A stretch of DNA of 63,654 nucleotides from positions 1-63,654 of the forward strand of contig JAUWQO010000004.1 in NCBI GenBank assembly GCA_030610995.1. Reading direction: 5' to 3'. Below are positions 2,139 through 63,654 of this stretch, one piece after another; position 1 is the stretch's first letter, and each line of letters opens with the position of its first letter. The notes beneath the pieces were generated by a model that was not told the DNA's origin, ran no database searches, and saw nothing but the letters and a program-made list of their open reading frames with translations. The stretch is from Desulfobacterales bacterium (GTDB lineage: Bacteria > Desulfobacterota > Desulfobacteria > Desulfobacterales > ETH-SRB1). The position numbers were made by a program, and so were the translations under genes.

Positions 2139-3851
2139 CTAATCCGCAAAAAGCGGCTCTATACAAAACTGGTTTACATCGACAAGCCCCTTGTCTGTGA
2201 TCTTTAACTCAGGAATGACCGGAAGAGCCAAAAAGGATAATGTCATAAAGGGGTCATTTAAGGTTGTCCCAAAATCTCGCGCAACTTCAAGCAGTTTTTC
2301 CACTTTTTCTCTTACCGCATAAACAGGCTCCTGAGACATCAGGCCGGCAATAGGAAGCGGAAGGGTGGCGCATATTTTACTCTCGCACGAAGCTGCCAGG
2401 CCTCCGCCCATTTTAACCACAGATTCTACTGCTGTTTTCATATCTTCGTCGTTTGTTCCGACAACTATTATGTTGTGAGAGTCGTGGGCAACACTCGACG
2501 ACAGGGCTCCTTTCTTTAATCCAAAACCCCTGACAAAGCCTTTTCCGATATTGCCCGACCCTGTGTGCCTTTCTACAACAGCGATTTTTAAAATGTCCCG
2601 GGTGATGTCGGAAACAACCTTATTGTCGGACACCGCAGCTTCCACAATGCTCTGATTCGTTATTACCTGGTCAGGAATAATATCGATAACCCTTAAACGC
2701 TTTGCCTGGGCTGGGATGGAAAAATCAATTTCTTTGTTGCCAATATTCATGGATGGCTGAAAGGCCGCGGGAACCGGCTTTTTTATTTCCGGTGACATTT
2801 TCCCTTCCTGTGCGACCAGGACCCCGCCATAATAAACCTGTTCGATGCAGGGATTGTGAAGATCGGAAAAGACCGCTAAATCGGCGCGTCTTCCCGGACT
2901 AATTGCTCCAACATCGCTTATACCAAAATAATTAGCGGGATTTATTGTTGCTATCTGAATGGCAATAACAGGATCTATGCCTGCATGTATGGCTTTTCGA
3001 ACCATTGAATCAATATGACCTTCTTCAAGAATATCATGTGGATTCCTGTCATCTGTACACCACATAATACGGCTCGAGGATCTTTCGTTTACAATGGAAA
3101 TAAGGGATAATAAATTTTTGGCTGCAGTTCCCTCACGGATCATTATATGCATTCCGGCATTAAGTTTTTCTTTGGCTTCCCGGGCTGTTGTGCATTCATG
3201 GTCGCTTGAAATTCCTGCCGCAATATAGGCGTAAAGATCTTTTCCCGTCAGGCCCGGCGCATGGCCGTTAACAGGTTTTCCGTGCGTTTTTGCCATTTCG
3301 ATTTTTCTTAATACTTCAGGGTCTCTATGTATTACGCCCGGATAGTTCATCATTTCGGCCAGGGCAACTATCCTGTCATTGTCCATAAAAGGGGAGAGAT
3401 CGTCCGCGCCGAGTCTGGCTCCGGAGGTCTCCATATCGGTTGCCGGAACACATGAGGAAAGAGTAAAATATATATTCATGGGCTGCTGCCTGCTCGATTG
3501 CAGCATATAGTTTATCCCGTCTGCGCCAAGCACATTTGCTATTTCATGCGGGTCCGCAAAAACGGTTGTGGTGCCCAATGGTATTATGGCCCGGGCAAAC
3601 TCGGTGATACATGTCATGGAGCTTTCTATATGGACATGGGCATCAATAAAGCCCGGGCTGACAAACCGGTTTTCAATGTCCATAACTTTTTTTGCGGGAT
3701 ATGAACCAAACCCAACAATATAACCGCCTGCTATCGCTATGTTGCCGGAAACAATTTCACCGGAAAAAACATCAATAATCCTGGCGTTGGTTAAAAGAAT
3801 ATCCGCCTCTTTCTCTCCCATCGCCGATTTTATAATTTCATCAAGAGTCAT
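2139..3851 (-). CDS. ade: Adenine deaminase
   Basis: 570-aa ORF with amidohydrolase metal motif GFIDAHVHIESSM and overall adenine deaminase layout; 11-nt overlap with upstream gene. Confidence 0.85.
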   Translation of the reverse strand: MTLDEIIKSAMGEKEADILLTNARIIDVFSGEIVSGNIAIAGGYIVGFGSYPAKKVMDIENRFVSPGFIDAHVHIESSMTCITEFARAIIPLGTTTVFADPHEIANVLGADGINYMLQSSRQQPMNIYFTLSSCVPATDMETSGARLGADDLSPFMDNDRIVALAEMMNYPGVIHRDPEVLRKIEMAKTHGKPVNGHAPGLTGKDLYAYIAAGISSDHECTTAREAKEKLNAGMHIMIREGTAAKNLLSLISIVNERSSSRIMWCTDDRNPHDILEEGHIDSMVRKAIHAGIDPVIAIQIATINPANYFGISDVGAISPGRRADLAVFSDLHNPCIEQVYYGGVLVAQEGKMSPEIKKPVPAAFQPSMNIGNKEIDFSIPAQAKRLRVIDIIPDQVITNQSIVEAAVSDNKVVSDITRDILKIAVVERHTGSGNIGKGFVRGFGLKKGALSSSVAHDSHNIIVVGTNDEDMKTAVESVVKMGGGLAASCESKICATLPLPIAGLMSQEPVYAVREKVEKLLEVARDFGTTLNDPFMTLSFLALPVIPELKITDKGLVDVNQFCIEPLFAD

Positions 3852-47561: not shown

Positions 47562-48683
47562 ATGCGTTATGTATGGCAAAATACAAACTGGACAGAATTT
47601 AGCTGGGAAAGTGATGCACTGATTCAACCGCTTGGTCGGGCTCGACTGCGCCAGGGCAGGTTGCTGAGCAAGGTGAATGCTCTGGGTTTGAAATTCAGCA
47701 AAGAAGCCAGGGTTGAAATATTGATTGAAGAAGCCGTTAAAACCGCTGCGATCGAAGGGCAGGCCCTGCACAGGGATTCGGTCAGGTCTTCAGTGGCACG
47801 GCGACTTGGGCTGCCGACAGCCGGTTTGCCCGCCACGGAACGGGTTGTCGATGGCCTGGTGGATGTTCTGTTGGATGCCACTGCAAATTACAGCGAGCCG
47901 CTGTCGCCCGAAAGACTGATTGGCTGGCAGGCTGCCCTCTTTCCGACAGGGTATTCAGGCTTGCGGAAAACTCGTACCGGTCAATGGCGAGGCCCGGAAC
48001 TTATGCAGGTGGTATCAGGCCCTGTTGGCAAAGAAAAAGTCCACTTTGAGGCGCCGCCATCAGACCAGGTGGATATGGAAATCAGAGATTTCATTCAATG
48101 GTGGACAAAGGGATCGAAAAAAATCGAGGGACTGCTGCGGGCCGCTATAGCCCATTTTCGGTTTGTCACTATTCATCCGTTTGAAGATGGTAATGGACGG
48201 ATCGCCAGAGCCCTTACTGATATGGCGTTGGCACAGGATGAGAACCTGCCGTCCAGGTTTTACAGCCTTTCGACACGTATCATGGCTGAAAGGGATAGAT
48301 ACTACCGTGTGCTGGAGCAATGTCAGAAAGGAGACGGTAATATAACTGATTGGCTGCTATGGTTTCTGGAATGTTTCGAACGGGCGCTTGAGCATTCAGA
48401 GACATTGATTTCAAATGTTCTGGCAAAGGCACGGTTTTGGCAGCAGCATGGGCAGACGACATTGAATAAACGCCAGCAAAAGGTTATCAATCGGTTGCTG
48501 GATGCCGGTCCAGGCGGTTTCGAAGGCGGTCTGACCACCCGTAAATATGTGGGCATGGTAAAGGTTAGCCGGGCAACCGCTTATCGCGAGATATCGGACC
48601 TGGTTGCAAAGCAGATATTTAGGCAGAACCCGGGCAGGGGTCGCAGTGTCAGCTATGACATAATATGGGCAGATACGGAGTAA
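47562..48683 (+). CDS. Fic family protein (DUF4172-type N-terminus, class II inhibitory helix, C-terminal wHTH-like tail)
   Basis: Fic motif HPFEDGNGRIARAL; N-terminal TAAIEG matches the (S/T)xxxE(G/N) intramolecular inhibitory motif. Confidence 0.85.
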   Translation: MRYVWQNTNWTEFSWESDALIQPLGRARLRQGRLLSKVNALGLKFSKEARVEILIEEAVKTAAIEGQALHRDSVRSSVARRLGLPTAGLPATERVVDGLVDVLLDATANYSEPLSPERLIGWQAALFPTGYSGLRKTRTGQWRGPELMQVVSGPVGKEKVHFEAPPSDQVDMEIRDFIQWWTKGSKKIEGLLRAAIAHFRFVTIHPFEDGNGRIARALTDMALAQDENLPSRFYSLSTRIMAERDRYYRVLEQCQKGDGNITDWLLWFLECFERALEHSETLISNVLAKARFWQQHGQTTLNKRQQKVINRLLDAGPGGFEGGLTTRKYVGMVKVSRATAYREISDLVAKQIFRQNPGRGRSVSYDIIWADTE

Positions 48684-48842
48684 AATGTTATCACTAAAAC
48701 CAATCTCCGGTGCCTGTCTAAACTCAACATCTGCCCAATCATAAACTGGAAACACAGCGGCTTGAACTTCTAATTCATTGACCCATTTTCTTCTTCTGCA
48801 CACTCTCTGACACGCTCCCAGAACCATTTCGTGCTATATATC

Positions 48843-48867
48843 TGTCAATATAAAAATTATATTGACA
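48843..48867 (+). promoter_or_regulatory. Candidate operator: 10-bp perfect inverted repeat upstream of the XRE-ImmA gene
   Basis: tgtcaatata-aaaat-tatattgaca; right arm contains TTGACA (-35-like) followed 17 nt later by TAACAT. Confidence 0.4.
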
Positions 48868-48897
48868 AAAACAAGACCAAAAAGTAACATTAAAAAT

Positions 48898-50034
48898 ATG
48901 AAAATCAATCTTGGTTTCATCGGAAAAAATATCCGTAAACTTAGACGGCAACGTAGTTGGACGATGGCTAAACTCGCTGCAAAAGTCGGAATGAGCGAAG
49001 TGCCTTTAGGAAGAATTGAGCGCGGTGTAAACGCTCCTTCCGCTTCTGTAATTTACAGACTGTCAAAAGAGTTGGGCGTTTCTGTGGATATGCTTTTTGC
49101 CGAGGATAATCAAAACCTCAGATCTCTTCAGTATGAAAAAGCACGAAATCCTTTTCTTGTTGCAATCGACAAAGAGCATGAAGCTCTGCCCGCTAAAACC
49201 AGGATTATGGCCCAGGATATTATTGATGCGTTTTGTGCCCTTGAAGATATTTGCAAAGCGCAGAAAAGGGCAAATATTCCGCTTGTTATTCCTTTCGATC
49301 TCACAATTAGGGGAATGGAAGCACTTTCGGAAAAGGTGCGCTATTTTGCCGGAATTGAGCACGGCGTGGTCTTTGACTATTTTGAACTCTTTGAAACCCT
49401 TGGTTTTCGTGTAATCGTAGCTCCTATGCCTAAAGGAATTGAGAGTTTTTCATATTATGACCCTTTAAATCAGAATGCTTTCTTTTTTTTGACGGCAAGG
49501 CAGAATCCTGAACGTCAGCTTTTTTGCCTGGCCTATGAATTGGGAAAGGTCTTAATCCTGACTCACTCTATACAGCAGGGCGTGGAATTGTTTCAAACCG
49601 ATGCCGCATCTGATTCTTCAGGCGAAAAACCGTTTACAGCTCATCGTGCTGCCAGGCGTTTTGCCGCTACCTTTCTGATGCCTGCAAAAGCTGTGAGCGA
49701 TACTGTTAGACAATTAGGAATTCAAAAAAAGTACTGGTCTTACGAACTCTTGCTTAGAATCAAACATCGCTTTGGTGTTTCAGCAGAAGCTTTTTTATAT
49801 CGTTTAAATGAACTCGATTTAATCGATCCCTCTCTGGTTCAATCGCTTAAAGCTAAAATTCATAAATATTACGGCAAAACAAATTTTGGCGAACCAGATC
49901 TTTCCAGAAGGCTTTTAACCCCCAACGGCCGCCTGTGGGATCTGGTATTAACCGGGAAAGAATCAAAAGAAGGACGTGAGGAAGTGTTTAAAATTGAGAA
50001 AGTATTGAAAAAGTGGAAGGTAGTAAGAAAATGA
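48898..50034 (+). CDS. XRE-family HTH fused to ImmA/IrrE-type metallopeptidase domain
   Basis: N-terminal HTH (IRKLRRQRSWTMAKLAAKVGMSEVPLGRIERG), C-terminal region with ImmA/DUF955-like layout (LAYELGKVL..., FAATFLMP); ATG at 48898 preferred over TTG 48862. Confidence 0.7.
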   Translation: MKINLGFIGKNIRKLRRQRSWTMAKLAAKVGMSEVPLGRIERGVNAPSASVIYRLSKELGVSVDMLFAEDNQNLRSLQYEKARNPFLVAIDKEHEALPAKTRIMAQDIIDAFCALEDICKAQKRANIPLVIPFDLTIRGMEALSEKVRYFAGIEHGVVFDYFELFETLGFRVIVAPMPKGIESFSYYDPLNQNAFFFLTARQNPERQLFCLAYELGKVLILTHSIQQGVELFQTDAASDSSGEKPFTAHRAARRFAATFLMPAKAVSDTVRQLGIQKKYWSYELLLRIKHRFGVSAEAFLYRLNELDLIDPSLVQSLKAKIHKYYGKTNFGEPDLSRRLLTPNGRLWDLVLTGKESKEGREEVFKIEKVLKKWKVVRK

Positions 50035-50084
50035 ATCGGTACATAGCGCTGGATGTGGGAACAACCGACCTCTGTGTACATTAA
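50031..50084 (+). pseudogene. Truncated 5' end of a DEDDh exonuclease gene (17 codons then stop)
   Basis: MNRYIALDVGTTDLCVH*; first ~35 nt match the start of the intact exonuclease at 51487; ATGA overlap with the ImmA stop. Confidence 0.6.
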
Positions 50085-50214
50085 AAAATAAGCGGAAAAC
50101 TATATCCAAATACCAGGGCAAGCTGAAGAAAGAAAAGAACCTGGGAACGCAGGTTCAACTGAACACTCGAATCAAACAGATCAAGTGTCGCATCGAGGAA
50201 ATTAAGGCAGCATT

Positions 50215-51342
50215 ATGAATGGCGAAAGAGATAAAAAGCACGAAACAGAACAGCGAAAGGTTCGTAATGTGAAACAAAAAGACGGGATTGTTATGCCTGT
50301 TCCGGTTTCACAAACTGATCTTCCTGATGGCTACGCAAATTTGCTGGCCTCCCTCAAGAAACGTATTCAACAGGAGCGCATAAAAACGGTTCTATCTGCC
50401 AATTGCGCAATGGTGATGCTCTATTGGGATATTGGGGCATCCATACTCGAAAGACAGCAAACCGAGGGCTGGGGGGCAAAAGTCATAGACAGGCTTTCAT
50501 TTGATCTAAAAGAAGCATTCCCGGATATGAAGGGGTTTTCCTCGCGAAATCTGAAATATATGCGCAAATTTGCTGAATCATGGAGAGATCGTCAATTAGT
50601 GCAACGCACCGTTGCACTAATTCCATGGCGCAGCAACCTGGCTCTATTGGACAAATTAAAAGACCTCAAACAACGGCTTTGGTATGCTCAAAAGACAATA
50701 GAAAACGGCTGGAGTCGTGATGTTTTATCCTTTCAGATTGAAACGCAGCTTCACAAACGATTAGGTAAGGCTACTAACAACTTTGAAATAGCGCTTCCTC
50801 CTGCCGATTCTGATATGGCATCTCAAATCTTCAAAGACCCTTATATCTTTGATTTTCTGGGAACGGCTGAACCTCGTAGAGAAACAGAATTAGAGCAGAA
50901 GCTTATTGAGCATCTGGAAAAATTTCTATTGGAACTGGGACAGGGTTTTGCTTTTGTAGGCAGACAGGTTCATATGGAAGTTGGGGATGATGATTTTTAT
51001 ATTGACCTGCTTTTTTATCACCTCAAATTGCGCTGCTATGTGGTGGTTGAGTTAAAGGCTGGAAAATTTCAGGCCGGTCATGTCAGCCAATTGAATATGT
51101 ATATGAATATAGTTGATGATCTGATGCGTCATCCGGATGACAAGCCGACAATCGGACTATTGCTGGTAAAAGAAAAAAACAAAACTCTGGCTAAATATGC
51201 CCTTGCCGGATACACCAAGCCGATGGGTGTTGCCGAGTGGGAAAGACATATAACAGAGTCTATTCCTGAAAATCTTAAATCAAGTCTACCTACCATTGAA
51301 GAGATTGAAGCTGAATTTTCAGCGGAGGAAAATGACGGATGA
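50215..51342 (+). CDS. YhcG/DUF1016-family PD-(D/E)XK nuclease-like protein
   Basis: N-terminal helical region (YWDIG..I...Q..GWGAKVI..LS.DL) and C-terminal nuclease core (FAFVGRQ..DFYIDLLFYH..YVVVELK). Confidence 0.8.
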   Translation: MNGERDKKHETEQRKVRNVKQKDGIVMPVPVSQTDLPDGYANLLASLKKRIQQERIKTVLSANCAMVMLYWDIGASILERQQTEGWGAKVIDRLSFDLKEAFPDMKGFSSRNLKYMRKFAESWRDRQLVQRTVALIPWRSNLALLDKLKDLKQRLWYAQKTIENGWSRDVLSFQIETQLHKRLGKATNNFEIALPPADSDMASQIFKDPYIFDFLGTAEPRRETELEQKLIEHLEKFLLELGQGFAFVGRQVHMEVGDDDFYIDLLFYHLKLRCYVVVELKAGKFQAGHVSQLNMYMNIVDDLMRHPDDKPTIGLLLVKEKNKTLAKYALAGYTKPMGVAEWERHITESIPENLKSSLPTIEEIEAEFSAEENDG

Positions 51343-51406
51343 GCAATAATAGCAGACAATTTCTGGTTAGAGCTGGAGACGACAATGGATAAATTGACAG
51401 AACAGG

Positions 51407-51486
51407 ACGGGAAAAGAATCGGAAAAAGGACGTGAGGAAGTGCTTGAAATTGAGAGAGTATTGAAAAAGTGGAAAGTGGTAAAAAA
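51407..51486 (+). repeat. Orphan 3' fragment of an XRE-ImmA gene directly abutting the intact exonuclease
   Basis: 51428..51521 versus 49972..50065: 8 mismatches in 94 ungapped nt by my count; preserves the ATGA stop/start junction. Confidence 0.8.
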
Positions 51487-51996
51487 ATGAATCGGTATAT
51501 AGCGCTGGATGTGGAAACAACGGGTCTTTCGCCCCAAAACGGGGACAGGGTAATAGAAATCGGCGCAGTTGCTATCGAGAATCAGGGCATTATTGCTGAA
51601 TTCAGCAGCCTTATCGATGTTGACAAAAGGATCCCCTGGCAAGTTCAGCAGGTGCACAGCATAACCAATGAAATGCTAAGCGGCGAACCCAAACCGGATG
51701 AGATATGGTCGGAGTTTTACGAATTCATTGCCGGAAGTATCCTGGTAGCCCACAATGCAAGCTTTGACATCGGATTTTTAAGACATGAATTTGATTTATT
51801 AGGCATGACTCTGAATAATCGGTCTTTGTGTACACTAAAAATGAGCAGAAAGCTATATCCGCATTTGCCCGATCATAAACTGGAAACAGTAAGCCGATAC
51901 CTGCTTGGAGAATCAGCGAATCAGATGCAAAGACATCGGGCGCTTGATGACGCGAAGCTTGCGGCCATGATATGGCTTGAAATGGGGAAAATGTGA
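51487..51996 (+). CDS. DEDDh 3'-5' exonuclease (DnaQ/epsilon-like, stand-alone)
   Basis: ExoI ALDVETTG, ExoII AHNASFDIGFL, ExoIII HRALDDA; 169 aa from ATG 51487. Confidence 0.85.
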   Translation: MNRYIALDVETTGLSPQNGDRVIEIGAVAIENQGIIAEFSSLIDVDKRIPWQVQQVHSITNEMLSGEPKPDEIWSEFYEFIAGSILVAHNASFDIGFLRHEFDLLGMTLNNRSLCTLKMSRKLYPHLPDHKLETVSRYLLGESANQMQRHRALDDAKLAAMIWLEMGKM

Positions 51997-52057
51997 GCAG
52001 GCTGAACAAATGAAAGAGCTGTTAAAATAACAGATTAAACAAGAGGATATCGTAACT

Positions 52058-53074
52058 ATGTCAAAAGAACTTACAAACTCAACCATAGAACGCCAGAATG
52101 TTCTGAACAACCCCTATGCAGTTACCGAAATTCAGAAAGCTGTAGACCTCCGATGCATCTTTTTTGAAGACCGCAATTGGTTAAATAAGGAGCAGATCGC
52201 TTCTTTTTTTGAAGTCACGCCGCGTACCATCGATAATTATCTCAACAAATATGAAAGCGAATTGCGTCATAACGGTTACGAAGTGCTGCAAGGTATCCGA
52301 TTGAAAAAGTTGAAGAAAGCTATAATTGAGCAGTTTGGTGACGAAATGGATTTCATTACCAAAACAACGACTCTCGGCATATTTGATTTTAGGGCGTTTC
52401 TTAATATCGCAATGTTGCTGACCGAAAGCGAACGGGCCCGCGTGTTGCGGCAAACCATTCTGGATATCGTTATCGACACGATAAATCAGCGTACCGGAGG
52501 CAGTACCAAATATATCAATCAGCGTGACGAAGACTTTATTCTTGCCTACTTTCAGGAGGAGAATTACCGCAAGGAATTTACCAATGCGTTGCGGGATTAT
52601 GTGGACATGGGTAATTTCAAATACCCGATGTACACCAATAAAATTTATGTCAGCATCTTTCGTGAAAATGCACAAGAATATCGCAAGATACTGAAGCTGC
52701 ACGAAAAAGATAAAGTTCGCGATACCTTTTATTCCGAGATTCTCGATCTGGTGGCTTCCTACGAATACGGATTTGCCAAACTGCTGGAAGCCACCCATGC
52801 AAAATGGCAGCAAAAGCTGACTTCATGGGATGTAGATCTGCTCTTTAAGGAATTTGAGAAACAGCCGCACTGGAAACCCCTGGTTGAAAGGGCCAGAAAC
52901 AAGATGGCAAGCCGTGACCTGGTGTTCAGAGATGCACTTCATTTGCAGCTAAAAGAATATATTATGCCTGTTCAAGCTGATGAATTTGAACGTTTTCTTG
53001 GGGAGAAAAGCAAGGAGTTGGCAGAACGCCTGGAAGAAGCCAAAGATGTTTTTAAACGGTTAAAGGAACGCTAA
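52058..53074 (+). CDS. RhuM-like DNA-binding protein (probable partner of the adjacent Doc)
   Basis: IFFEDRNWLNKEQIASFFEVTPRTIDNYLNKY parallels the RhuM N-terminal motif (..VWLTQ.QMAELF...R.VI..HI.NIF); 3-nt gap to Doc gene. Confidence 0.5.
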   Translation: MSKELTNSTIERQNVLNNPYAVTEIQKAVDLRCIFFEDRNWLNKEQIASFFEVTPRTIDNYLNKYESELRHNGYEVLQGIRLKKLKKAIIEQFGDEMDFITKTTTLGIFDFRAFLNIAMLLTESERARVLRQTILDIVIDTINQRTGGSTKYINQRDEDFILAYFQEENYRKEFTNALRDYVDMGNFKYPMYTNKIYVSIFRENAQEYRKILKLHEKDKVRDTFYSEILDLVASYEYGFAKLLEATHAKWQQKLTSWDVDLLFKEFEKQPHWKPLVERARNKMASRDLVFRDALHLQLKEYIMPVQADEFERFLGEKSKELAERLEEAKDVFKRLKER

Positions 53075-53831: not shown

Positions 53832-54581
53832 GTGGTTCAGTCCATAAGACTGTGTCAGCCGCGAATGGATTGGAGGGTGTCAATGACGGCGAAGCCGATC
53901 AAAAGGAAGAGTGACAAGCTTGTGAGCATACAGGGGTATGATGGCCTTCTTTCCGGCATGGTCTCTCTCATTGAGGAGGCGCGACGGGTATCAGCACGAA
54001 CCGTCAACGCCATCATGACGGCAACCTACTGGGAGATAGGTCGCCGCATTGTAGAAAACGAGCAGGGCGGGAAACGGCGGGCTGGGTATGGAGAGGCTCT
54101 GCTCAAGCAACTTTCGGCAGATCTTGCGAGCCGGTTTGGTCGAGGCTTCGCAAAAAGCAATCTCTACCAGATGCGGACCTTCTATCTGACGTATCAGGAT
54201 ATTTTCCAGACGGCGTTTGGAAAATCAAAGTCCCGAAAATTCCAGACACCGTCTGGAAAATCTCAGCCTCACAATTCGCAGACTCCGTCCGCGGAATTGA
54301 CTGTTCAGGCCATCTCAGAACGGTTTCCGCTCCCTTGGTCTGCCTATAATCCCGACGGACCTTGGACATATCAACATCAAACGTCTATTCACGGTAAACG
54401 TGATGGGTTTACAATAGCAGATTTGCTTGCCGTTGGTAAAGAGATGAATATCAAGTCCGGCCTCCCGATTATCAAAGCGGTAATAGAATCAGTTTCACAA
54501 TGGCCGCGTTTTGCCAGTGAGGCCGGGGTCGAGAACAGGCAGATTGAAGCCATCGGGAAGGTGCATCGGTTGAGTCTATAA
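53832..54581 (+). pseudogene. Chimeric ORF: DUF1016/YhcG N-terminal region fused to a HipA-like C-terminal tail
   Basis: aa ~40-170 resemble the DUF1016 N-domain (TATYWEIGRRIVENEQ..GYGEALLKQLSADL, FPLPWSAY); from AYNPDG onward it reads like the end of HipA kinases (..SIHGKRDGFTIADLL..WPRFASEAGV); nuclease core and kinase core both missing. Confidence 0.5.
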
Positions 54582-55016: not shown

Positions 55017-56909
55017 ATGGAATTAAAATCAAAAGTTTCGATTTTTCCATCGCCCCGCCCGATTCTGAAATGGGCAGGGGGAAAACAGCAATTATTACCC
55101 ATCCTTTTATCCAAAACCCCAAAAAATTTTAACAGGTACATAGAACCATTCTTTGGTGGCGGAGCATTATTTTTTGCATTACAGCCTGACAAGGCCATCA
55201 TTTCAGAATCCAATCCGGAACTTATAAACTTCTATCGTATAATCTCGAAAAATGTTGATAGTCTCATACAAAAACTTTATGAATTCAGGTTAGATAAAGA
55301 AGAATATTATAATATCCGGGTATTGGATTTTCAAAAACTTCCTCCGGTTGAAGCCGCCGCAAGAACCATCTATCTAAATCGGCTCTGTTTTAACGGTCTT
55401 TACCGTGTAAATCGAAAAGGTATGTTTAATGTGCCTTACGGATATTATAAAAATCCCCGCACATGTAACCCGGAAGGCTTAAAAATCGCATCTGAAGCCT
55501 TAAAAAACGCGACCATCATCCAGGGGGATTATAAAGATGTTCTACGCGACTATGCTAAACCGGGAGATTATATATATCTCGACCCTCCTTACCTGCCTAT
55601 TTCGGAATACTCTGATTTTAAACGTTATACCAAAGAGCAATTCTATGAAGAAGATCACGTTGAACTTGCAGAGGAAGTAAAACGACTGCATGAACTTGGA
55701 TGTTACGTTTTATTGACAAATTCCAACCATCCAATGGTTTATGAGATGTACAACGGTTTTGAAATCGAAGTTATTCAAACTCGCAGGAATATCAATAAAA
55801 AAGGCAATAAGCGTAAAGGGGAGGATGTTGTAATCTATATTCCTCCACGCCGGTATTTTCTCATAAGCCCTGTTCCACCGGAATTACCAAAGCAGGCAAA
55901 AGCATATCCGTCCACACGTTTTATGGGGAGCAAGCAATCTCTTTTAAAGCATATATGGAACGTAGCATCACAATTTGAATTTGAAACCGTACTTGATATA
56001 TTTAGTGGAAGCGGTGTCGTTGGTTATATGTTCAAATCGTTCAACAAACAGGTTATAAGCAACGATTACATGGCTATGTGTGCCACATTTGCCGAAGCCA
56101 TGATAGCCAATAACACCGAAACACTTGACAAAAGCGAAGTTGAATTTCTGTTATCTCCATCTGCAAAAACAGATGATTTTGTAAGTCAAACTTTTCAAGG
56201 ACTCTATTTTATTGATGAAGAAAACGCATTTATTGACCAAATCCGGGGAAATATAAAAAGGCTTAAAAATAAAACCAAAAGGTCAATAGCCACATCCGCA
56301 CTTATACGTGCCTGCCTGAAAAAACGCCCCAGGGGAATCTTTACCTATACCGGACATAGGTATGATGACGGACGGAAAGATCTCCGGTTATCTCTGAAAG
56401 AACACTTTTTAAAAGCCGTTAAATGTACAAATCAGGCTGTTTTCGATAACAGCAAAGGAAATAAAGCCAGGTGCGGAGATGCCATGACCATCCGGTTAAA
56501 ACCGGATTTGGTCTATATTGACCCTCCTTATTATAGCCCATATTCCGACAATGAATATGTCAGGCGGTATCATTTTGTTGAAGGATTGGCGTGTAACTGG
56601 AAAGGTGTGGAAATGCAATGGCATACGAAAACCCGAAAATTTAAAAGCTATCCCACCCCCTTCAATTCAAGGATAGGAGCACATGACGCATTTAACAAAC
56701 TGTTTCGGAAATTTAAGGATAGTGTTCTAATCGTTTCCTATTCATCAAATTCCTTTCCAAATCAGGAAGAACTAACAAACCTCATGGCAAAATATAAAAG
56801 CCAGGTCGAGGTTGTTTCGATAGACTATCGATACAGCGCAGGAAACCAGGGACACAAAATCAACGACAATAATAACAAGGTGCGGGAATACCTGTTTGTA
56901 GGTTTTTGA
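55017..56909 (+). CDS. Tandem double Dam-like (D12 class) N6-adenine DNA methyltransferase
   Basis: Two complete modules: (1) LKWAGGKQQLL, EPFFGGGALFF, YLDPPY; (2) FMGSKQSLL, LDIFSGSGVVG, YIDPPY; fusion of two such modules is typical of methylases serving asymmetric (Type IIS) sites. Confidence 0.8.
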   Translation: MELKSKVSIFPSPRPILKWAGGKQQLLPILLSKTPKNFNRYIEPFFGGGALFFALQPDKAIISESNPELINFYRIISKNVDSLIQKLYEFRLDKEEYYNIRVLDFQKLPPVEAAARTIYLNRLCFNGLYRVNRKGMFNVPYGYYKNPRTCNPEGLKIASEALKNATIIQGDYKDVLRDYAKPGDYIYLDPPYLPISEYSDFKRYTKEQFYEEDHVELAEEVKRLHELGCYVLLTNSNHPMVYEMYNGFEIEVIQTRRNINKKGNKRKGEDVVIYIPPRRYFLISPVPPELPKQAKAYPSTRFMGSKQSLLKHIWNVASQFEFETVLDIFSGSGVVGYMFKSFNKQVISNDYMAMCATFAEAMIANNTETLDKSEVEFLLSPSAKTDDFVSQTFQGLYFIDEENAFIDQIRGNIKRLKNKTKRSIATSALIRACLKKRPRGIFTYTGHRYDDGRKDLRLSLKEHFLKAVKCTNQAVFDNSKGNKARCGDAMTIRLKPDLVYIDPPYYSPYSDNEYVRRYHFVEGLACNWKGVEMQWHTKTRKFKSYPTPFNSRIGAHDAFNKLFRKFKDSVLIVSYSSNSFPNQEELTNLMAKYKSQVEVVSIDYRYSAGNQGHKINDNNNKVREYLFVGF

Positions 56910-56911
56910 TT

Positions 56912-58675
56912 ATGGCAAATCCATGGCACATAGGAAACACAACAGTCAGAACCCCTTACCGTTTAAGAGATGCTTTAATTGCTTTAGCGCATTCAGAATA
57001 TCATGGCAATCTGGTAGGAAAAGTCAGAGAAAGTGGATTCGCAAGATTACTTCATGAAAAAGAAATCTTAAAAGCTGAACGAATTGACCAGGACGATTCA
57101 CAGGACTTTAGCGATTTAGGAAGAAAGTGGAGAAGTGCCCTTGCCCAATTAGGTTTTGTGATTCAACATCTTACCAGAGAACACCAAAAAGGAATAGACC
57201 CGAAATATAAAGATTTTATCAAAGAACACCCCGATTTTTCGGGGATACCATATGAAGTGACTCCAAACGGAATCAATCTTATCAATGCCGATACAATACC
57301 CGCACAGCAAGAATGTTTTTTAAGAGCATTGGCGGCATACAGAATACCATCTGTATTTGAACCTCGATACAAAGTTAAACAATTTTCACCCTTACACCAT
57401 GTACTTAAAATCCTAAAAAATCTCGAAAACAAAAAAGTCGAGCCTGTAATAAAATTTTGGGAAATGGCGGTTTTGCAATTAACAACTCCCGAAAACGGTT
57501 ACGAAAACATCACAAACAACATCCTCAAATACAGAGAAGAAAGAAAAAAGAGTGCCAACAAAAAAAGATTCGATCAGGAAATGAGGCTAAAAGCAACAAG
57601 CGGCAACATAACAAGGGCAAGAACTCTTAAAGATTACGCCGACTTAAATATTCGATATCTTAAAGCCACAGGTCTGTTTCAATCTTCCGGCAGAGGAATA
57701 ACATTTTTACCGGAAAAACGCATCCTGGTTGAAAAACTCCTTGAAGATGAATTTACAATCTATGATGACAATACATACATAAAAGAAATATGGACAGGAG
57801 CTACATTGCCAACTGATAACAGAGAAACAGCGCAAACTGTTATCAAATCATTAGTCGGTAATATCAAAGAATTCGGTGAAAAAATCGCCCTCCCGAGACT
57901 TGAAGATAAAACCTCTCAAGAACTCTCAAACATTCGTCATAATATAGAAGGGCAATTGAGCCGGATAAAAGAAAACGAATTTGCAAATAAGCAAATTATA
58001 AATTGGGAAGAAATCTTATGCTATATGCTTGCTCTTGAAAAACCGGGCAAGAAAATTTCTTTCCAGGATGAAGTGATAAGCATACCACGCGGAGAAGCGC
58101 CGGCTTACTTTGAGTGGATTCTTTGGAGAGCTTTTTTAGCCATTAACTCACTGACAAACAAACCCTGGGAAGCCAGACGATTTAAAATAGACCAGGATTT
58201 TTTGCCAATAGCACCAGCGCCAGGCAGAGGTCCCGATCTCATTTTTGAATTCAAAGATTATGTTCTGGTTGTAGAAGTAACATTAACCTCATCCTCCCGA
58301 CAGGAAGCCGTTGAAGGTGAGCCGGTACGTCGCCACGTTGCCGAAATAGCCGAGCAACACGAAAATACAGGTAAACGAGTATATGGACTATTTATAGCTT
58401 TAAACATAGACAGCAACACCGCTGAAACATTTAAAAGTGGTAACTGGTACAAGCCGGATGATAGTAAACTCCCGCTTCAGATTATTCCAGTCAGGCTTGA
58501 TGATTTTTCCAAACTGTTTGAAGCCGGCTTTAAAGCTGGGGGACTAACTCCCAATAAGATCAGAGAACTGATTACAGAATGCCGTGCTTTGAGTAATTAT
58601 GACGCTCCGGAATGGAAAAGCCAGATAAACAAACAAGTAAAAGAGTTCATAGGGCAAATCATCAAAGACAAATGA
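56912..58675 (+). CDS. AlwI-family-like Type IIS restriction endonuclease
   Basis: N-terminal W.IGNTTVRTPYRL pattern recalls the RE_AlwI family; C-terminal PD..(E)V.. nuclease-like segment GPDLIFEFKDYVLVVEVTL; overlaps/abuts methylase stop (alt. TTG start 56906). Confidence 0.6.
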   Translation: MANPWHIGNTTVRTPYRLRDALIALAHSEYHGNLVGKVRESGFARLLHEKEILKAERIDQDDSQDFSDLGRKWRSALAQLGFVIQHLTREHQKGIDPKYKDFIKEHPDFSGIPYEVTPNGINLINADTIPAQQECFLRALAAYRIPSVFEPRYKVKQFSPLHHVLKILKNLENKKVEPVIKFWEMAVLQLTTPENGYENITNNILKYREERKKSANKKRFDQEMRLKATSGNITRARTLKDYADLNIRYLKATGLFQSSGRGITFLPEKRILVEKLLEDEFTIYDDNTYIKEIWTGATLPTDNRETAQTVIKSLVGNIKEFGEKIALPRLEDKTSQELSNIRHNIEGQLSRIKENEFANKQIINWEEILCYMLALEKPGKKISFQDEVISIPRGEAPAYFEWILWRAFLAINSLTNKPWEARRFKIDQDFLPIAPAPGRGPDLIFEFKDYVLVVEVTLTSSSRQEAVEGEPVRRHVAEIAEQHENTGKRVYGLFIALNIDSNTAETFKSGNWYKPDDSKLPLQIIPVRLDDFSKLFEAGFKAGGLTPNKIRELITECRALSNYDAPEWKSQINKQVKEFIGQIIKDK

Positions 58676-58682
58676 TTTAATA

Positions 58683-58826
58683 AGACCTTTGCATAACCCC
58701 TACTTTTGTTCAATTTTGGTCATTGCGAGGAGCAAAGCGACGTGGCAATCTTGTGGATTATCAACATGTTTTGAGATTGCTTCGCTTTGCTCGCAATGAC
58801 AATACTGGCGTTTTTCAAAGGTCTCT
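58683..58826. repeat. TIR-bounded miniature element, family tttgcataacc..cattgcgag, inside the island
   Basis: agacctttgcataacc / tttttcaaaggtctct ends and cattgcgaggagcaaagcgacg / cgctttgctcgcaatgac arms; explains false N-terminal extension of next ORF. Confidence 0.7.
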
Positions 58827-58833
58827 TAATCTT

Positions 58834-59691
58834 ATGAAGTACTATATTAACGATAACTTAAACATATTTGATTTTGATGTACAGCTCAAAGTTGCTGAAA
58901 GCAATATTTCACCATTTTATTATGATGTTGAGAATAAAATTAAATTATATAACTTAGATACATTTTCATTTTTGCCAAACATACCAGAGAATTGTGTTGA
59001 TCTTGTCTTTGCAGATCCGCCCTATTTTTTGTCATCTGGTGGCATAACATGTAGCAGTGGAAAAAGAGTATGTGTAGATAAAGGGGAGTGGGATAAATCG
59101 CGTAATATTGAATCTATTCATAATTTCAATAAGAAATGGCTGTCAGAAAGTAAGCGGATTTTGAAAGTAAATGGTACGATTTGGGTTTGTGGAACATTTC
59201 ATAATATATTCTCGGTTGGATTTGCTTTACAGGAGTTGGGCTTTAAAATACTAAACAATATTGTATGGGAAAAGAAAGATCCTCCTCCGAATTTAACGCG
59301 TAGATATTTTACCCATGCCTCTGAACATCTTATTTGGGCTGCAAAAACCAAACAATCAAGACATACTTTTAATTATGAAAGACTAAAAACTATTTCAAGT
59401 GGGGAAGCGATAAAATCTGTATGGAGAGATATTTGGAAAATGCCATCAGTTGATCATTCTGAAAAAGTTTTTGGCAAACACCCAACACAAAAGCCTGAAG
59501 GAGTTATTAAAAGAGCTATATTAGCATCCAGTAACACAGGAGACCTGGTTTTCGACCCATTTTGCGGGAGTGGCACAACAGGAGTTGTATGTAAAAAACA
59601 AAATCGAAAATTTGTCGGTATTGATAATAATATAGAATACTTAAATATAGCCAAAAAAAGATTAGCTTCAGCAAGCAATAGAAATAATTAA
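58834..59691 (+). CDS. Beta-class N4/N6 DNA methyltransferase (N6_N4_Mtase family)
   Basis: DLVFADPPYF catalytic motif precedes FDPFCGSGTTG SAM motif (beta-class order); start at Met38 (58834). Confidence 0.8.
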   Translation: MKYYINDNLNIFDFDVQLKVAESNISPFYYDVENKIKLYNLDTFSFLPNIPENCVDLVFADPPYFLSSGGITCSSGKRVCVDKGEWDKSRNIESIHNFNKKWLSESKRILKVNGTIWVCGTFHNIFSVGFALQELGFKILNNIVWEKKDPPPNLTRRYFTHASEHLIWAAKTKQSRHTFNYERLKTISSGEAIKSVWRDIWKMPSVDHSEKVFGKHPTQKPEGVIKRAILASSNTGDLVFDPFCGSGTTGVVCKKQNRKFVGIDNNIEYLNIAKKRLASASNRNN

Positions 59692-60023
59692 ATGAATTCG
59701 GTTTGGGAGCATATTTTTTTGTATAGAATCATGACGAGGATTGCGGATTCAATCGTACTGAAGACATATTGATGCTCCTATCGTTCATCCATATTTTCCA
59801 ATCACATTTCAGCCTCAACATGCAAATTGCCGGTTATTATTTGTTCTTGACCCAACAACTTGTTTTATATTATCAATAATAAATTTAATAGGATGAGAAT
59901 TTCCTTTATTTGATAGGATATAAGAAAAATAAAGAAATCATGTAACTCCTTTTAATTATGTCAAAAAAGTCGCCAGAATAGCGATAGGTTATATAAACAT
60001 AATTGAATTTTTGGTGATATAAG

Positions 60024-60935
60024 ATGGACCAGTTTCGGCGTCACTATTACGAAGTTGTGTTTGAGCGAGACTTCAACAAGAAGAAGGGTGCCGCATTCCA
60101 GGATTTTTTCTCAGAGATTATGGGAAAGGGCTACCCAGGAGATTTTATCCGTACCCGACCGTGGGGAAGCTCCGGTGACAGAAAGAACGATGGCTATTTG
60201 AAATCGCAAAGGATTCTGTTCCAGGTATATGCACCGAATGAAATGACAGAAAGAAAGGCCATTACAAAGGTAGAAGAAGACTTCCACGGAGCTTTGCCTT
60301 ACTGGGAGGCGTTTTTCGACACATGGACCTTCGTTCATAATTCAAGAGAAGGCCTTGGGCCGGGACTCGTCAAAAAGCTGCTCGATCTTGATAGCGGCTA
60401 TCCCGAGATCAAGATACAGACTTGGGACTACGACGTATTGAGAAAAGAGTGTTTTCGGCTCAGCGAAAAGGACATCGCCGCACTGTTCGGACCCGCACCC
60501 TCACAAAGGGACTTCCTCAATCTCGGTTTTGAAGACCTCAAAATAGTACTGAAGACCATCGCGCGCCAGCCGGCTCCAAAAGAGCCAGACCTGAGCCAGG
60601 TCCCTCAAGACAAGATAGATATCAACAGACTTTCGGAAAACACTGCAAGTCTCATCCAGGCTGGTAGAACTAAGAGTACGCTCGTGGGAGATTTCTTCGA
60701 TGGCTGGCCTGACCCTCAATTCGGTGACGAGGTCGTCCAGGCGTTCAAAGCAAAATATGAAGAACTGCGGGGTGCTGAAACCCAGCCCGATAGGATTTTT
60801 CAGGAGCTCCAGATGTTTGCAGGGGGAGAGATCAGGCAAGACACCGGTCACGAGGCAGCGGTTCTCGCTGTGTTGGCGTATCTTTTTGATCATTGCGACA
60901 TATTCGAGGACTCAGTCGAGGGGGATCAACAATGA
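60024..60935 (+). CDS. Predicted effector component of an ABC-three-component / Lamassu-like system (restriction-endonuclease-like N-domain + helical C-domain)
   Basis: 303 aa; N-domain FQDFFSEIM..GSSGDRKNDGY..ILFQVYAP resembles Mrr/PD-(D/E)xK layout with Y in the usual K position; stop overlaps next start (ATGA at 60932..60935). Confidence 0.5.
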   Translation: MDQFRRHYYEVVFERDFNKKKGAAFQDFFSEIMGKGYPGDFIRTRPWGSSGDRKNDGYLKSQRILFQVYAPNEMTERKAITKVEEDFHGALPYWEAFFDTWTFVHNSREGLGPGLVKKLLDLDSGYPEIKIQTWDYDVLRKECFRLSEKDIAALFGPAPSQRDFLNLGFEDLKIVLKTIARQPAPKEPDLSQVPQDKIDINRLSENTASLIQAGRTKSTLVGDFFDGWPDPQFGDEVVQAFKAKYEELRGAETQPDRIFQELQMFAGGEIRQDTGHEAAVLAVLAYLFDHCDIFEDSVEGDQQ

Positions 60936-61177
60936 TACTTCCCACAAAAAGAATCTCTGAGGGAAGATCCTTGATCGGAATCGGCAGTGACGTTCTTAGC
61001 CTCCTTGAAGATCCGAAAACCGTCTCACGACTTTGGGATGAGTTCCAACAAATGAGTAAGATGAAAACCGCTTCGTTAAAGGTGACATACGATTGGTTCG
61101 TGCTTGCACTGGACCTTCTTTACATGCTCAATGCTGTCAGTTTCCATATGGGCCTTGTGAAAAGGATAGAGACATGA
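60932..61177 (+). CDS. Small middle component (81 aa) of the three-gene system
   Basis: ATG 60932 overlaps upstream stop; own stop overlaps downstream ATG (ATGA at 61174..61177); helical, no recognisable catalytic motif. Confidence 0.5.
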   Translation: MILPTKRISEGRSLIGIGSDVLSLLEDPKTVSRLWDEFQQMSKMKTASLKVTYDWFVLALDLLYMLNAVSFHMGLVKRIET

Positions 61178-62925
61178 TTCACCGCATCTACAGCAGTCTG
61201 CCGAGCTTTAAGAATCTTGAGTTTCACAGCGGTCTCAATCTTGTGCTCGCAGAAAAGACACCGGGTGCAACCGAACGACAGACGCGAAATCGTGCGGGGA
61301 AGTCCAGCATTACGGAGATCATCCATTTTCTCATGGCTGGAACCCTCGAAAAAAACTCCATCTTTCGGGACGTGTACCTCAAGAATCACTCATTCGGCCT
61401 GGAGTTCGACCTTGGCGGACACATGGTCGCGATGGAGCGCGAAGCGGAGAATCGTTCAGTCCTGACAGTCGCTGGCGGAGAGTATAATCACTGGCCTGTT
61501 CAGCCATCAGTCGATACGCTTACCGGTAAAAACATGATCAAAAACAGCCTGTGGAAGATCGTGCTTGGGAAAATCCTCTTTGAGCTGCCTGAATCAGAGG
61601 AAAAATATAGTCCCACGTTTCGATCATTGTTTTCCTACTTTGTCCGGCGACAATCCGTACTGGGATTCACGGACCCCTTTCGACAAAACGAAAAACAACA
61701 GATCTACGATCAGCAGGTTGCTATCAGCTATCTTATCGGCCTTGACTGGACGATTCCTCAGAAATGGCAATCGATTCGGGAACAAGAGAAATCCCTCAAG
61801 GCTCTCAAGAAGGCTGCCATGGAGGGTGCGCTTGGCGATATCATCAGCACGACATCTGATTTACGCACCAAGCTTACGGTGGCCGAAGCCCGGGCCGTGC
61901 AGCTAAGACGGAGCACCACGGAGTTCAAGGTTCTACCGGAGTATCGCGAACTCGAGCAGGAAGCATCCGACCTCACAAGGCAGATCAACAAACTCGTTGA
62001 TGAAAACACGATGGATCGTCAGCTCATCGACGATATCGAGGAATCCTTACAAGAGGAAGCCCCACCGCCAGATACCAAACTCGAGGAGGTGTATCGAGAG
62101 GCGGGAGTCGTTCTTCCTGCTTTGGCTTTGAAGCGATTCGAGGATGTAAGAGCCTTTCATCAATCGGTTCTTGCCAACAGGAATTCGTATCTTCGGGGTG
62201 AGATCAGTGCCTCACGTCGACAAATCGAACATAGGGTAGACACGATCAAAAAACACGAGGTACGGCGTTCGCAAATTATGGGCATCCTCCAGTCGCATGG
62301 GGCACTCGATCATTTCACCAGGCTTCAGCAGGAACTTGCTCGACTCGAAACCGACGTGGAAAACCTCAGACAGCGCCATACAATAGCCGAAAAGCTGGAA
62401 AGCGGCAAAACGGATCTCGATCTTGAGCGACAACAGCTATTACGCCGTTTGCGCCAGGATCACAATGAGCAAAGCGATATTCTGCGAATGGCGATTCTTG
62501 CTTTTGAGGAGATTTCCAATGCCCTCTATGAAGATGCCGGCAGCCTCGTGATCAGTGAAAGTCTTAATGGGCCGCAATTCGAGGTTAAGATTCATGGCAA
62601 AAGGAGCAGCGGGGTTTCAAACATGCAGGTCTTTTGCTTCGACATGATGCTAATGAGGTTCTGTGCAGAACGCGGCATCGGGCCGGGTTTTCTCTTCCAT
62701 GACAGCCATCTTTTCGATGGTGTCGATGAACGACAGGTTGCGAAAGCATTGCAGCTTGGAGCAAAAATGGCAGACCAGCTCGGATTTCAGTACATTGTTA
62801 CCATGAATGAAGATGCACTGCCAGTCGAGTTGCCAAAGGACTTTGATCTGGAGCAATACATCATGCCGACACGCTTGACGGATGCCACTGAGGACGGCGG
62901 TTTGTTCGGTATTCGATTCGGCTAA
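61174..62925 (+). CDS. SMC/Rad50-like ABC ATPase with central coiled coil (DUF2326-like)
   Basis: 583 aa from ATG 61174; Walker A TRNRAGKSS, ~250-aa charged heptad-rich middle, signature-like KRSSGVS, Walker B/D-loop GFLFHDSHLFDGVD. Confidence 0.75.
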   Translation: MIHRIYSSLPSFKNLEFHSGLNLVLAEKTPGATERQTRNRAGKSSITEIIHFLMAGTLEKNSIFRDVYLKNHSFGLEFDLGGHMVAMEREAENRSVLTVAGGEYNHWPVQPSVDTLTGKNMIKNSLWKIVLGKILFELPESEEKYSPTFRSLFSYFVRRQSVLGFTDPFRQNEKQQIYDQQVAISYLIGLDWTIPQKWQSIREQEKSLKALKKAAMEGALGDIISTTSDLRTKLTVAEARAVQLRRSTTEFKVLPEYRELEQEASDLTRQINKLVDENTMDRQLIDDIEESLQEEAPPPDTKLEEVYREAGVVLPALALKRFEDVRAFHQSVLANRNSYLRGEISASRRQIEHRVDTIKKHEVRRSQIMGILQSHGALDHFTRLQQELARLETDVENLRQRHTIAEKLESGKTDLDLERQQLLRRLRQDHNEQSDILRMAILAFEEISNALYEDAGSLVISESLNGPQFEVKIHGKRSSGVSNMQVFCFDMMLMRFCAERGIGPGFLFHDSHLFDGVDERQVAKALQLGAKMADQLGFQYIVTMNEDALPVELPKDFDLEQYIMPTRLTDATEDGGLFGIRFG

Positions 62926-63474
62926 GGGTAAGGTTAAGCAGGAAAGATTATATTGCAACTAAGATGTTTTTTGAAGTATACAGGGGACTAACGTCTGAAC
63001 AGTTAGAGGATTTTCGGCGTGCAAAAGAGAGTTGGGAAGATGTTGATCTGCCATCAGTTCCAGCAAATGCAAGGATCAATTTTACTCCGGGGTGGCAGGT
63101 TCTTCAAACATCAACAGTGCAACTTCGTACATGAGAAAAAAGTCCGAGAGGCGGGGCGGATCTTTTTAAGGTGCCTTATGACATGGACGAGCCAAACCTC
63201 ACGATTCTGGTTGCCGGAAAAGAGCAGTTCCCCCATCCGGAAGGATTAGATAGTTAGTCATATGCGCTTGTTGTGACATTTTCGTTTGATGGTGAAGAAA
63301 TCGCCTGTATAATCTTGTACGTCAGAGGGTGAGGATTAGAGAAAGGGTTAGAGTTCAGAATTAAGTTGTCAGCGAAAATTTTGGGATGCTCTTTAGTTTT
63401 ACAGCTTTGGATAGGTTGTCGCTTTTATTACATAGCTAACTTTAATTTCATACAGGGGGCTTGTTTTAAAACTG

Positions 63475-63520
63475 CAAATGTGAAGGGCGTACCCCAAGTC
63501 CATACAAATGTGAAGGGCGT
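63475..63520. repeat. Two direct copies of caaatgtgaagggcgt spaced 30 bp
   Basis: 63475..63490 and 63505..63520 identical; followed by ttatgttgtg (63524) whose reverse complement cacaacataa lies at 63626. Confidence 0.6.
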
Positions 63521-63654
63521 CCCTTATGTTGTGAGTTCTCTCTAACCCATTGAAAAAACAAATAAATACTCACCAAAAGCTTATGCATCGATATTTGCTA
63601 TAATAACAAAGAGTTATGGAAAGCCCACAACATAACTTAAAATGACTCGCAACA

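Follow-up and report, generated by a model that had tools for sequence, protein, structure and literature searches.

Lamassu is among the commonest bacterial defence families, present in about 10-15% of genomes, and the mechanism is understood only for those members whose effector is Cap4 with CTD7 or CTD12 as its C-terminal domain (CTD). How far that mechanism reaches is the question raised by three adjoining genes in a Desulfobacterales bacterium (assembly GCA_030610995.1, contig JAUWQO010000004.1, positions 1 to 63,654; this whole stretch of 63,654 nucleotides is called the window below). The genes, referred to as A, B and C, lie at 60024-62925 on the forward (+) strand and probably encode a 'short' Lamassu complex of the ABC-three-component (ABC-3C) type, with the composition CTD10-MC6-DUF2326. 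This sub-type is widespread, being found in at least 533 species genomes, about ten phyla and 48 plasmid records, and it takes the known design to an extreme: it has the smallest adaptor, no zinc hook, an effector in which the catalytic lysine is replaced and an ATPase that is probably unable to hydrolyse ATP. It bears both on whether 'sequester, release, oligomerise' holds across the family and on whether ATP hydrolysis is dispensable.

Gene A (60024-60935, as given in the list of open reading frames, ORFs) encodes a LmuA-like effector of 303 amino acids (aa). Gene B (60932-61177), read from the ATG at 60932, encodes an 81-aa middle component of the MC6 type, a LmuC-like adaptor, and gene C (61174-62925), read from the ATG at 61174, a 583-aa coiled-coil ATP-binding cassette (ABC) ATPase that is LmuB-like and belongs to the DUF2326/YydD family. 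The stop codon of A overlaps the start of B by 4 nucleotides (nt) within acaATGAtac, with ATGA at 60932-60935, and the stop of B overlaps the start of C in the same manner within gacATGAttc, with ATGA at 61174-61177. An initial annotation, made from the letters of the sequence, had described just these three same-strand frames and their ATGA overlaps, and both are present where it placed them. Purine-rich, Shine-Dalgarno-like stretches precede the starts of A, B and C (GGTGA, GAGGGGGA and AAAGGA, respectively). No convincing sigma-70 promoter is found on the + strand at 59692-60023, promoter-like sites around the cassette do not exceed the shuffled expectation, and no + strand terminator was found downstream of 62925.

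Each protein is assigned by a separate Pfam model. Residues 170-295 of protein A match PF20275, the CTD10 of ABC-3C systems (6e-21), protein B matches PF20293, the ABC-3C middle component 6 or MC6 (1.1e-17; gathering score 27.2), and residues 447-582 of protein C match PF10088, DUF2326 (2.4e-43); protein C also gives a match to the Rad50-type AAA_23 model that stays below threshold (3.8e-4). The ABC-3C architecture proposed at the outset is thus upheld by three independent models. The effector has the layout expected of ABC-3C systems, a distinct restriction-endonuclease-like N-domain followed by a family-specific CTD10, and the gene order of effector, middle component and ATPase is kept. ABC-3C systems were reportedly defined by computation, by Krishnan and colleagues in 2020. 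The names that NCBI PGAP gives to relatives, 'ABC-three component system protein' and 'ABC-three component system middle component 6', agree with this placement. In PADLOC, which together with Pfam had been recommended as a check, protein C matches PDC-M68B over its full length (1.2e-168), PDC-M68 being a candidate system and not a validated one, and matches LmuB more weakly (8e-14). The companion model PDC-M68A matches the effector only in its CTD10 half (residues 162-295, 3e-26), and the N-terminal effector module of the PDC-M68A models differs from that of the window.

These proteins agree with the description of short Lamassu. Short LmuB proteins have about 600 aa, a Walker B of the form hhhhD[Q/S/T/E] and zero to two CxxC hooks, and the systems with CTD6-12, MC2-8 and a small LmuB constitute a diverged or 'short' sub-family (Haudiquet et al. 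2025; Li et al. 2025). The window's ATPase, with 583 aa, Asp-Ser in its Walker B (FLFHD-S) and no CxxC, fits the description of short LmuB and is accompanied by CTD10 and MC6, the one deviation being a Walker A of the form TxxxxGKS in place of the 'prototypical' GxxxxGKS. By sequence, the cassette is best assigned as a remote member of short Lamassu, of the CTD10-MC6-DUF2326 sub-type; it is remote because neither the ATPase sequence nor its family profile matches a solved ABC ATPase. The sub-type itself is not a discovery, as it is already catalogued in Pfam, in NCBI protein names and in PADLOC as PDC-M68. In the searchable literature, structural and functional work covers the Cap4-CTD7-MC3, CTD12, MC2-variant, lipase, Mrr and hydrolase-protease types. 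CTD10-MC6 is not among these, in agreement with the earlier view of this branch as one that experiments have yet to reach. The JGI name of the ATPase family, 'YydD', presumably points to a Bacillus subtilis namesake, and a search of the literature on yydB, yydC and yydD found no defence study.

The motifs of the ATPase are those of an unusual split-head enzyme. In an alignment of 28 homologues with 55-95% identity, the Walker A or P-loop (T37-R-N-R-A-G42-K43-S-S45, 61282-61308) carries an invariant Thr in place of the first Gly of GxxxxGKS, and T37, A41, G42, K43 and S45 are all invariant. The C-terminal half of the ATPase head, delimited by the DUF2326 model (residues 447-582, 62512-62919), holds a signature-like S478-x-G480 within KRSSGVS (476-482), followed at residues 506-518 by FLFHDSHLFDGVD, in which F-L-F-H-D510 is the Walker B and F-D-G-V-D518 the D-loop. 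Walker A K43 on one side and the signature and Walker B D510 on the other are spaced about 435 residues apart, as in split-head coiled-coil ABC proteins. The intervening helical middle (residues ~200-445, 61771-62508) is presumed, from the sequence and from weak matches to coiled-coil families, to form an antiparallel coiled coil; PPP297-299 lies near the expected apex and is followed by the conserved RFEDVRxFHxSVxxNRxSYL (~320-340). There is no CxxC zinc hook, the sole Cys residues being 488 and 497, both in the head. Of these elements, TRNRAGKSS at 37-45, KRSSGVS, FLFHDSHLFDGVD and the long charged helical middle had been read correctly at the start, except that the likeness to DUF2326 had been seen at the N-terminus; the Pfam model covers the C-terminal 136 residues instead. 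The position of the catalytic Glu after the Walker B Asp is occupied by S511, which is invariant together with the following H512, and the H-loop, whose His position is assigned from what is generally known of ABC ATPases, reads Q-Y-I-V-T543-M544-N545 with no His. With the Walker B Glu replaced by Ser and the H-loop His lacking, the ATPase may act as a switch that binds ATP and hydrolyses it hardly or not at all. The Pfam CTD10 model also matches residues 285-398 of the ATPase (62026-62367, 2.5e-12), and does so in all ATPase homologues. A homology between the effector CTD and the ATPase apex was considered and dropped, as BLASTP and two hhalign runs found no similarity.

The N-domain of the effector (residues 1-165, 60024-60518, +) appears to be a diverged Mrr-like restriction-endonuclease fold, and its all-helical CTD10 (residues 170-295, 60531-60908, +), delimited by Pfam, PADLOC and AlphaFold2 helices at 169-291, is presumed to serve docking and oligomerisation. 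AlphaFold2 models the full-length protein with a predicted local distance difference test score (pLDDT) of 82.9 and a predicted template modelling score of 0.80, and the N-domain alone with a pLDDT of 89.8 and the alpha-beta-beta-beta-alpha-beta order that is seen in restriction-endonuclease folds. When the N-domain model is compared with the Protein Data Bank (PDB) by Foldseek, the best match is the restriction enzyme EcoT38I (E 7.5e-4, probability 1.0, TMq 0.46-0.53), with weaker matches to Card1, Cap4, XPF/FANCM and BstEII; in BFVD, the best viral-protein fold matches are annotated as restriction endonucleases. A fold search with the full-length effector model returned nothing at E <= 0.001, only clamp-loader noise. 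At the level of sequence, the PADLOC LmuA model is matched by 8 of 25 effector family members over its whole core (best 2.9e-6), and the hits are collinear, with residues ~18-117 against profile positions 16-119 (2e-5 to 7e-3 for individual proteins). That model is the one for the Lamassu-Mrr effector, as LmuA of Escherichia coli SE15 matches it at 1.4e-105. Alignments by hhalign to E. coli Mrr (E 0.09) and to Bacillus cereus LmuA-Mrr (E 0.06) place the motifs in register and are not significant. The restriction-endonuclease-like N-domain of the initial annotation is consequently retained, on the AlphaFold2 fold, the EcoT38I match and the distant link to the Lamassu-Mrr LmuA.

Within this fold the putative active site is non-canonical. 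The N-domain motif reads F-Q26-x-x-F ... G51-D52-x-K54-x-D56-G57 ... Q67-x-Y69 ... K82-x3-D86 ... H105-N106, and among 150 cluster representatives D52, K54, D56, K82, D86 and N106 are invariant or nearly so, together with Y69 (97%), H105 (91%), Q26 (90%) and Q67 (83%). The segments GSSGDRKNDGY and ILFQVYAP and the C-terminal LAYLFDHCDIFED, picked out earlier, are present and conserved, and the replacement of the catalytic Lys by Tyr that had been noticed in this one protein proves to be a property of the family. The active-site loop and strand are GDRKNDG ... FQVY here, compared to GDGGIDG ... QAK in Mrr and GAGDKGRD ... YQCK in SE15 LmuA. Only one of the four canonical PD-(D/E)xK positions is kept (Asp56), with Gln26 of helix 1, Gln67 and Tyr69 replacing Glu, Glu/Asp and Lys. 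The signature D ... (D/E/Q)xK is therefore incomplete, with D56 and Q67 present and Tyr69 at the Lys position. As the fold agrees and the catalytic signature does not, the domain is labelled Mrr-like or Mrr-derived: the model and the alignments suggest not a standard Mrr nuclease but a diverged, Mrr-like domain whose active site is non-canonical.

These replacements, together with the invariant K54, K82, D86 and H105-N106, raise the possibility that the complex and its sensor logic are as proposed and that the effector has another chemistry, for instance cleavage of RNA or tRNA, degradation of nucleotides or covalent nicking mediated by the Tyr, with growth arrest as the outcome. Conservation of the three replaced positions in 83-97% of the 150 representatives speaks for selection on a different active site and not for decay, and the domain is recognised by no Pfam nuclease model, Mrr_cat included, and by no NCBIfam model. 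Against such a departure, detectable kinship is closest to a restriction enzyme and to the Mrr nuclease domain that a validated Lamassu effector carries, and the GDxxxDG loop and the QxY strand lie in register with GDGGIDG ... QAK of Mrr; the fold matches of the domain are, for their part, only moderate. Restriction endonucleases with variant active sites also exist: the Lys position is taken by Gln in BglII and by Glu in BamHI. We regard an effector that does not cleave DNA as unlikely.

The N-domain is not confined to three-gene systems. When 1.84 billion representatives were searched with a profile, 1660 proteins proved to contain the effector N-domain. In at least 25 of the 150 best representatives it heads proteins of 450-1655 aa, in which a NACHT, NB-ARC or AAA_16 domain comes next and TPR or HEAT repeats complete the chain, and these NACHT/NB-ARC architectures have the same invariant residues. 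The N-terminus is the usual effector position in defence proteins of the STAND class (signal transduction ATPases with numerous domains), and the occurrence of the domain at this position supports a portable effector and not a sensor. Large examples of the STAND architecture include P0252, P0253, P0261, P0264, P0271, P0283, P0291, P0353 and others. In the most far-reaching view, which we hold to be rather unlikely, the N-domain would be an undescribed module derived from the Mrr fold, with a rebuilt active site (Asp52/Lys54/Asp56, Gln67/Tyr69, Lys82/Asp86 and His105/Asn106), that serves two unrelated immune switches, hook-less DUF2326 ATPases and NACHT/NB-ARC STAND NTPases; its chemistry might differ from metal-dependent DNA cleavage, and the ATPase would purely bind ATP as a switch, partnered by an adaptor of no more than 81 aa.

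The preferred reading, a DNA-cleaving short Lamassu complex, can be set against what is known from solved systems. In the Lamassu structures of the Cap4-CTD7-MC3 and Cap4-CTD12 types, the LmuB dimer is folded, LmuC sits at the centre and one LmuA is held by its CTD at the end away from the heads; DNA ends together with ATP release LmuA, which tetramerises through its CTD into the active nuclease. The tested Lamassu systems, Lamassu-Mrr among them, require the ATPase site, LmuC and the effector site, and act by abortive infection. In the system described here, a dimer of the hook-less ATPase together with MC6 would hold one effector by its CTD10, and the nuclease-like N-domain of the held effector would be monomeric and inactive. 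The ATPase heads would bind ATP and sense aberrant DNA from phage or plasmid replication, such as DNA ends or replication intermediates. Sensing would free the effector, oligomerisation through CTD10 would join the diverged Mrr-like domains, and the assembled domains would cut DNA indiscriminately, whereby the infected cell would be stopped or killed (abortive infection). We infer the stoichiometry, the DNA trigger, release, oligomerisation, the nuclease chemistry and the defence phenotype from the systems already studied, and consider this mechanism, taken as a whole, to be probable.

Comparison with individual systems shows how much is shared. Lamassu-Mrr of E. coli O150:H5 SE15 (LmuA-LmuC-LmuB) protects from phages by abortive infection (Millman et al. 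2022 preprint). It resembles the window's cassette in its three genes, its coiled-coil ABC ATPase and its effector with an N-terminal restriction-endonuclease domain, Mrr-type in SE15 and Mrr-like in the window; the GxxGDxxxD loop and the Q-x-(K/Y) strand are common to SE15 LmuA and this effector family, with Q-C-K in the former and Q-V-Y in the window. However, the C-terminal domain of SE15 LmuA is of another type and matches fall solely at the N-terminal positions of its profile, LmuC of SE15 is a winged-helix protein of 168 aa whereas the window's MC6 has 81 aa, and SE15 LmuB has 620 aa and a CxxC hook whereas the window's ATPase has 583 aa and none. The short Lamassu systems DdmABC of Vibrio cholerae, LmuACB of Salmonella (Cap4-CTD7-MC3) and type I LmuAB of Bacillus (Cap4-CTD12) share with the window an ATPase that measures about 600 aa and has a degenerate Walker B (D then Q/S/T), an effector composed of an N-terminal enzyme and a helical C-terminal docking domain, and a small middle protein; V. 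cholerae LmuB likewise has no zinc hook. They differ in that the effector enzyme is Cap4 and not Mrr-like and in the types of CTD and MC, and the window's ATPase and effector have no sequence-detectable similarity to any PDB chain, profiles included. No LmuA or LmuB chain is among the fold-search matches of the effector. The STAND NTPases of the Avs type (NACHT/NB-ARC plus TPR) share the N-domain and its invariant residues, but they are single polypeptides with another sensor and switch module and without an ABC ATPase or middle component. A published 'Lamassu-var' of E. coli O55:H7 TB182A, which restricts T-even phages weakly, is a different sub-type from the window's cassette; the annotation of its locus (NZ_CP038295 4117199-4120474) lists an ABC-3C middle component 2 together with a short ABC-3C protein.

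Several observations weigh against the proposed mechanism. Searches of PDB sequences with the ATPase, its family profile and the effector family profile returned chance matches only (uS2, GST and PBP2 across these searches), and with no solved structure matched by ATPase or effector, the transfer of the mechanism rests on distant homology. The fold matches of the N-domain are modest (TM about 0.5), the window's own N-domain falls below match level for the PADLOC LmuA model, and a narrow profile of the effector family recovers neither of the two LmuA-Mrr sequences at a significant level. Given the three replaced PD-(D/E)xK positions, nuclease activity is not assured. The MC6 protein is half the size of the studied LmuC proteins (168-182 aa) and matches no LmuC model in PADLOC. 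Some loci in other genomes lie among housekeeping genes, and no homologue was found among 50,697 phage records. Finally, the searchable literature holds no experiment on the CTD10-MC6-DUF2326 sub-type, and PADLOC lists it only as a candidate.

Evidence that the three genes work together comes from their distribution. A scan of 185,579 species genomes, one per species, found at least 533 loci, of which the best 80 were inspected. These come from Desulfobacterota, Nitrospirota, Acidobacteriota, Planctomycetota, Chloroflexota, Verrucomicrobiota, Firmicutes, Alpha- and Gammaproteobacteria and Myxococcota, about ten phyla. In 78 of the 80, the ATPase is directly preceded on its own strand by an MC6 ORF and by an effector that has this N-domain together with CTD10, and the remaining two are broken off by a contig end; a few of the 80 carry frameshifted copies. 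Database homologues are of uniform size, with 1743 for the effector, nearly all of about 303 aa, and 2172 for the ATPase, nearly all of matching length. The same trio, with the same 4-nt overlaps, is found in metagenome contigs and on pSG.H2a_1, an Enterobacter kobei conjugative plasmid of the IncF type (NZ_CP104725 27271-30157), and the recurrence of these overlaps in unrelated genomes is far beyond chance. Co-conservation of the trio as a unit, which had been posed as a test of the initial annotation, is therefore well established.

The unit is also mobile. Two metagenome-assembled genomes (MAGs), one of Desulfobacteraceae and one labelled 'Deltaproteobacteria', have 94-96% nucleotide identity to the window over 59999-62933 only, with unrelated flanks. 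Identity begins at 59999 in the former and at 60011 in the latter, everything upstream being unrelated, and the 5' edge of the mobile cassette accordingly falls at 59999-60023 (+), a stretch that includes the Shine-Dalgarno-like GGTGA before the start of A. As identity is confined to the cassette, the 2.9-kb unit has moved as one. The base composition is likewise atypical, with a G+C content of 0.498 in the trio, 0.412 in the window (sd 0.039, 1-kb windows) and 0.379 in the adjacent restriction-modification (R-M) genes. Both the GC-rich patch beside the R-M unit and the horizontal acquisition proposed for it are thus confirmed. No flanking repeats specific to the cassette were found around it and no integron-like boundaries; Rfam and tRNA scans gave nothing nearby, the window's only tRNA being at 31.9 kb. 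At the DNA level, none of the complete E. coli genomes contains a relative. In the Deltaproteobacteria MAG, three fragments of the ATPase gene with 89-95% identity lie upstream of the intact trio, at positions 1132-1190, 3264-3343 and 4209-4335 of that locus (window 62866-62924, 62095-62174 and 62798-62924); earlier copies of the cassette, or recombination at the site, may have left them behind.

Such mobility invites the explanation that the cassette acts mainly against plasmids, or is a selfish, addiction-like module that stabilises mobile elements, and is not primarily directed at phages. Among the 48 plasmid records with the cassette, 26 are conjugative or mobilisable, the copy on the IncF conjugative plasmid adjoins a RelB/DinJ antitoxin gene and genes of an integrative and conjugative element, relaxases and integrases are the commonest neighbours, and the related DdmABC Lamassu eliminates plasmids. 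Most copies, however, are chromosomal and lie beside R-M, AbiE and CBASS genes, and tested Lamassu systems also protect from phages, the two roles being compatible. We judge this explanation to be very unlikely as an account of the cassette's primary role. A housekeeping ATPase of the RecN/RecF/SbcC type for DNA repair or chromosome maintenance, with accessory proteins, would share the coiled-coil ABC architecture common to Rad50/SbcC and could draw on the weak AAA_23 match and on one locus among housekeeping genes, but it is effectively refuted by the lack of any NCBIfam RecN, RecF or SbcC match at E <= 0.01 (TrlF alone appears, with 18 bits against a cut-off of 350), which places the ATPase outside those families as first thought, by its patchy distribution among the species genomes, by the horizontal transfer that the cassette-only identity and atypical G+C reveal, and by the absence of the catalytic Glu and the H-loop His.

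The surroundings of the short Lamassu cassette in other genomes include toxin-antitoxin clusters, an integrase with a CBASS SMODS gene, and a BrxC fragment. The 133 nearest neighbours counted in other species include 7 integrases, 6 relaxases, 5 type I methyltransferases, 5 AbiEii toxins and 4 S subunits; these are raw counts without a genome-wide baseline, several sphingomonad loci represent one island, and the defence and mobile context to which they point is suggestive only.

In the Desulfobacterales genome itself, an island of defence and mobilome genes lies downstream of metG, and the cassette forms its end. The part between metG and the R-M unit (47562-53074) encodes a DUF4172-Fic protein, a helix-turn-helix (HTH) and IrrE/M78 peptidase regulator, an RNase T-like 3'-5' exonuclease and a 338-aa protein without a Pfam match; the Fic, HTH-IrrE and RNase T-like stretch is typical mobilome or defence cargo. 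A complete DUF1016/YhcG PD-(D/E)xK nuclease gene is located at 50215-51342, and 3.5 kb downstream of it a truncated DUF1016 paralogue of 249 aa (53832-54581) retains only the N-terminal domain, joined to an unrelated C-terminus. The AlwI-type R-M unit follows at 55017-59691, with 38% G+C. Three proteins make it up: one of 630 aa that matches D12-class adenine methyltransferases twice, an RE_AlwI endonuclease of 589 aa (3.9e-129), with a start codon that overlaps the stop of the methyltransferase gene, and a separate N6_N4 (CcrM-like) methyltransferase. The TTG start listed for the last of these adds an N-terminal extension (58723-58836) containing ...LRLLRFARNDNTGVF..., which resembles a translated intergenic repeat, and the true start is probably the ATG near 58837 (MKYYINDN...). 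Two further repeats are of note in the island and its vicinity. A 25-nt inverted repeat with 88% complementarity lies at 54198-54264, inside the truncated DUF1016 ORF, and about 550 nt downstream of the cassette, at 63475-63523, two 19-nt direct repeats of CAAATGTGAAGGGCGT(A/C)CC are spaced 30 nt apart.

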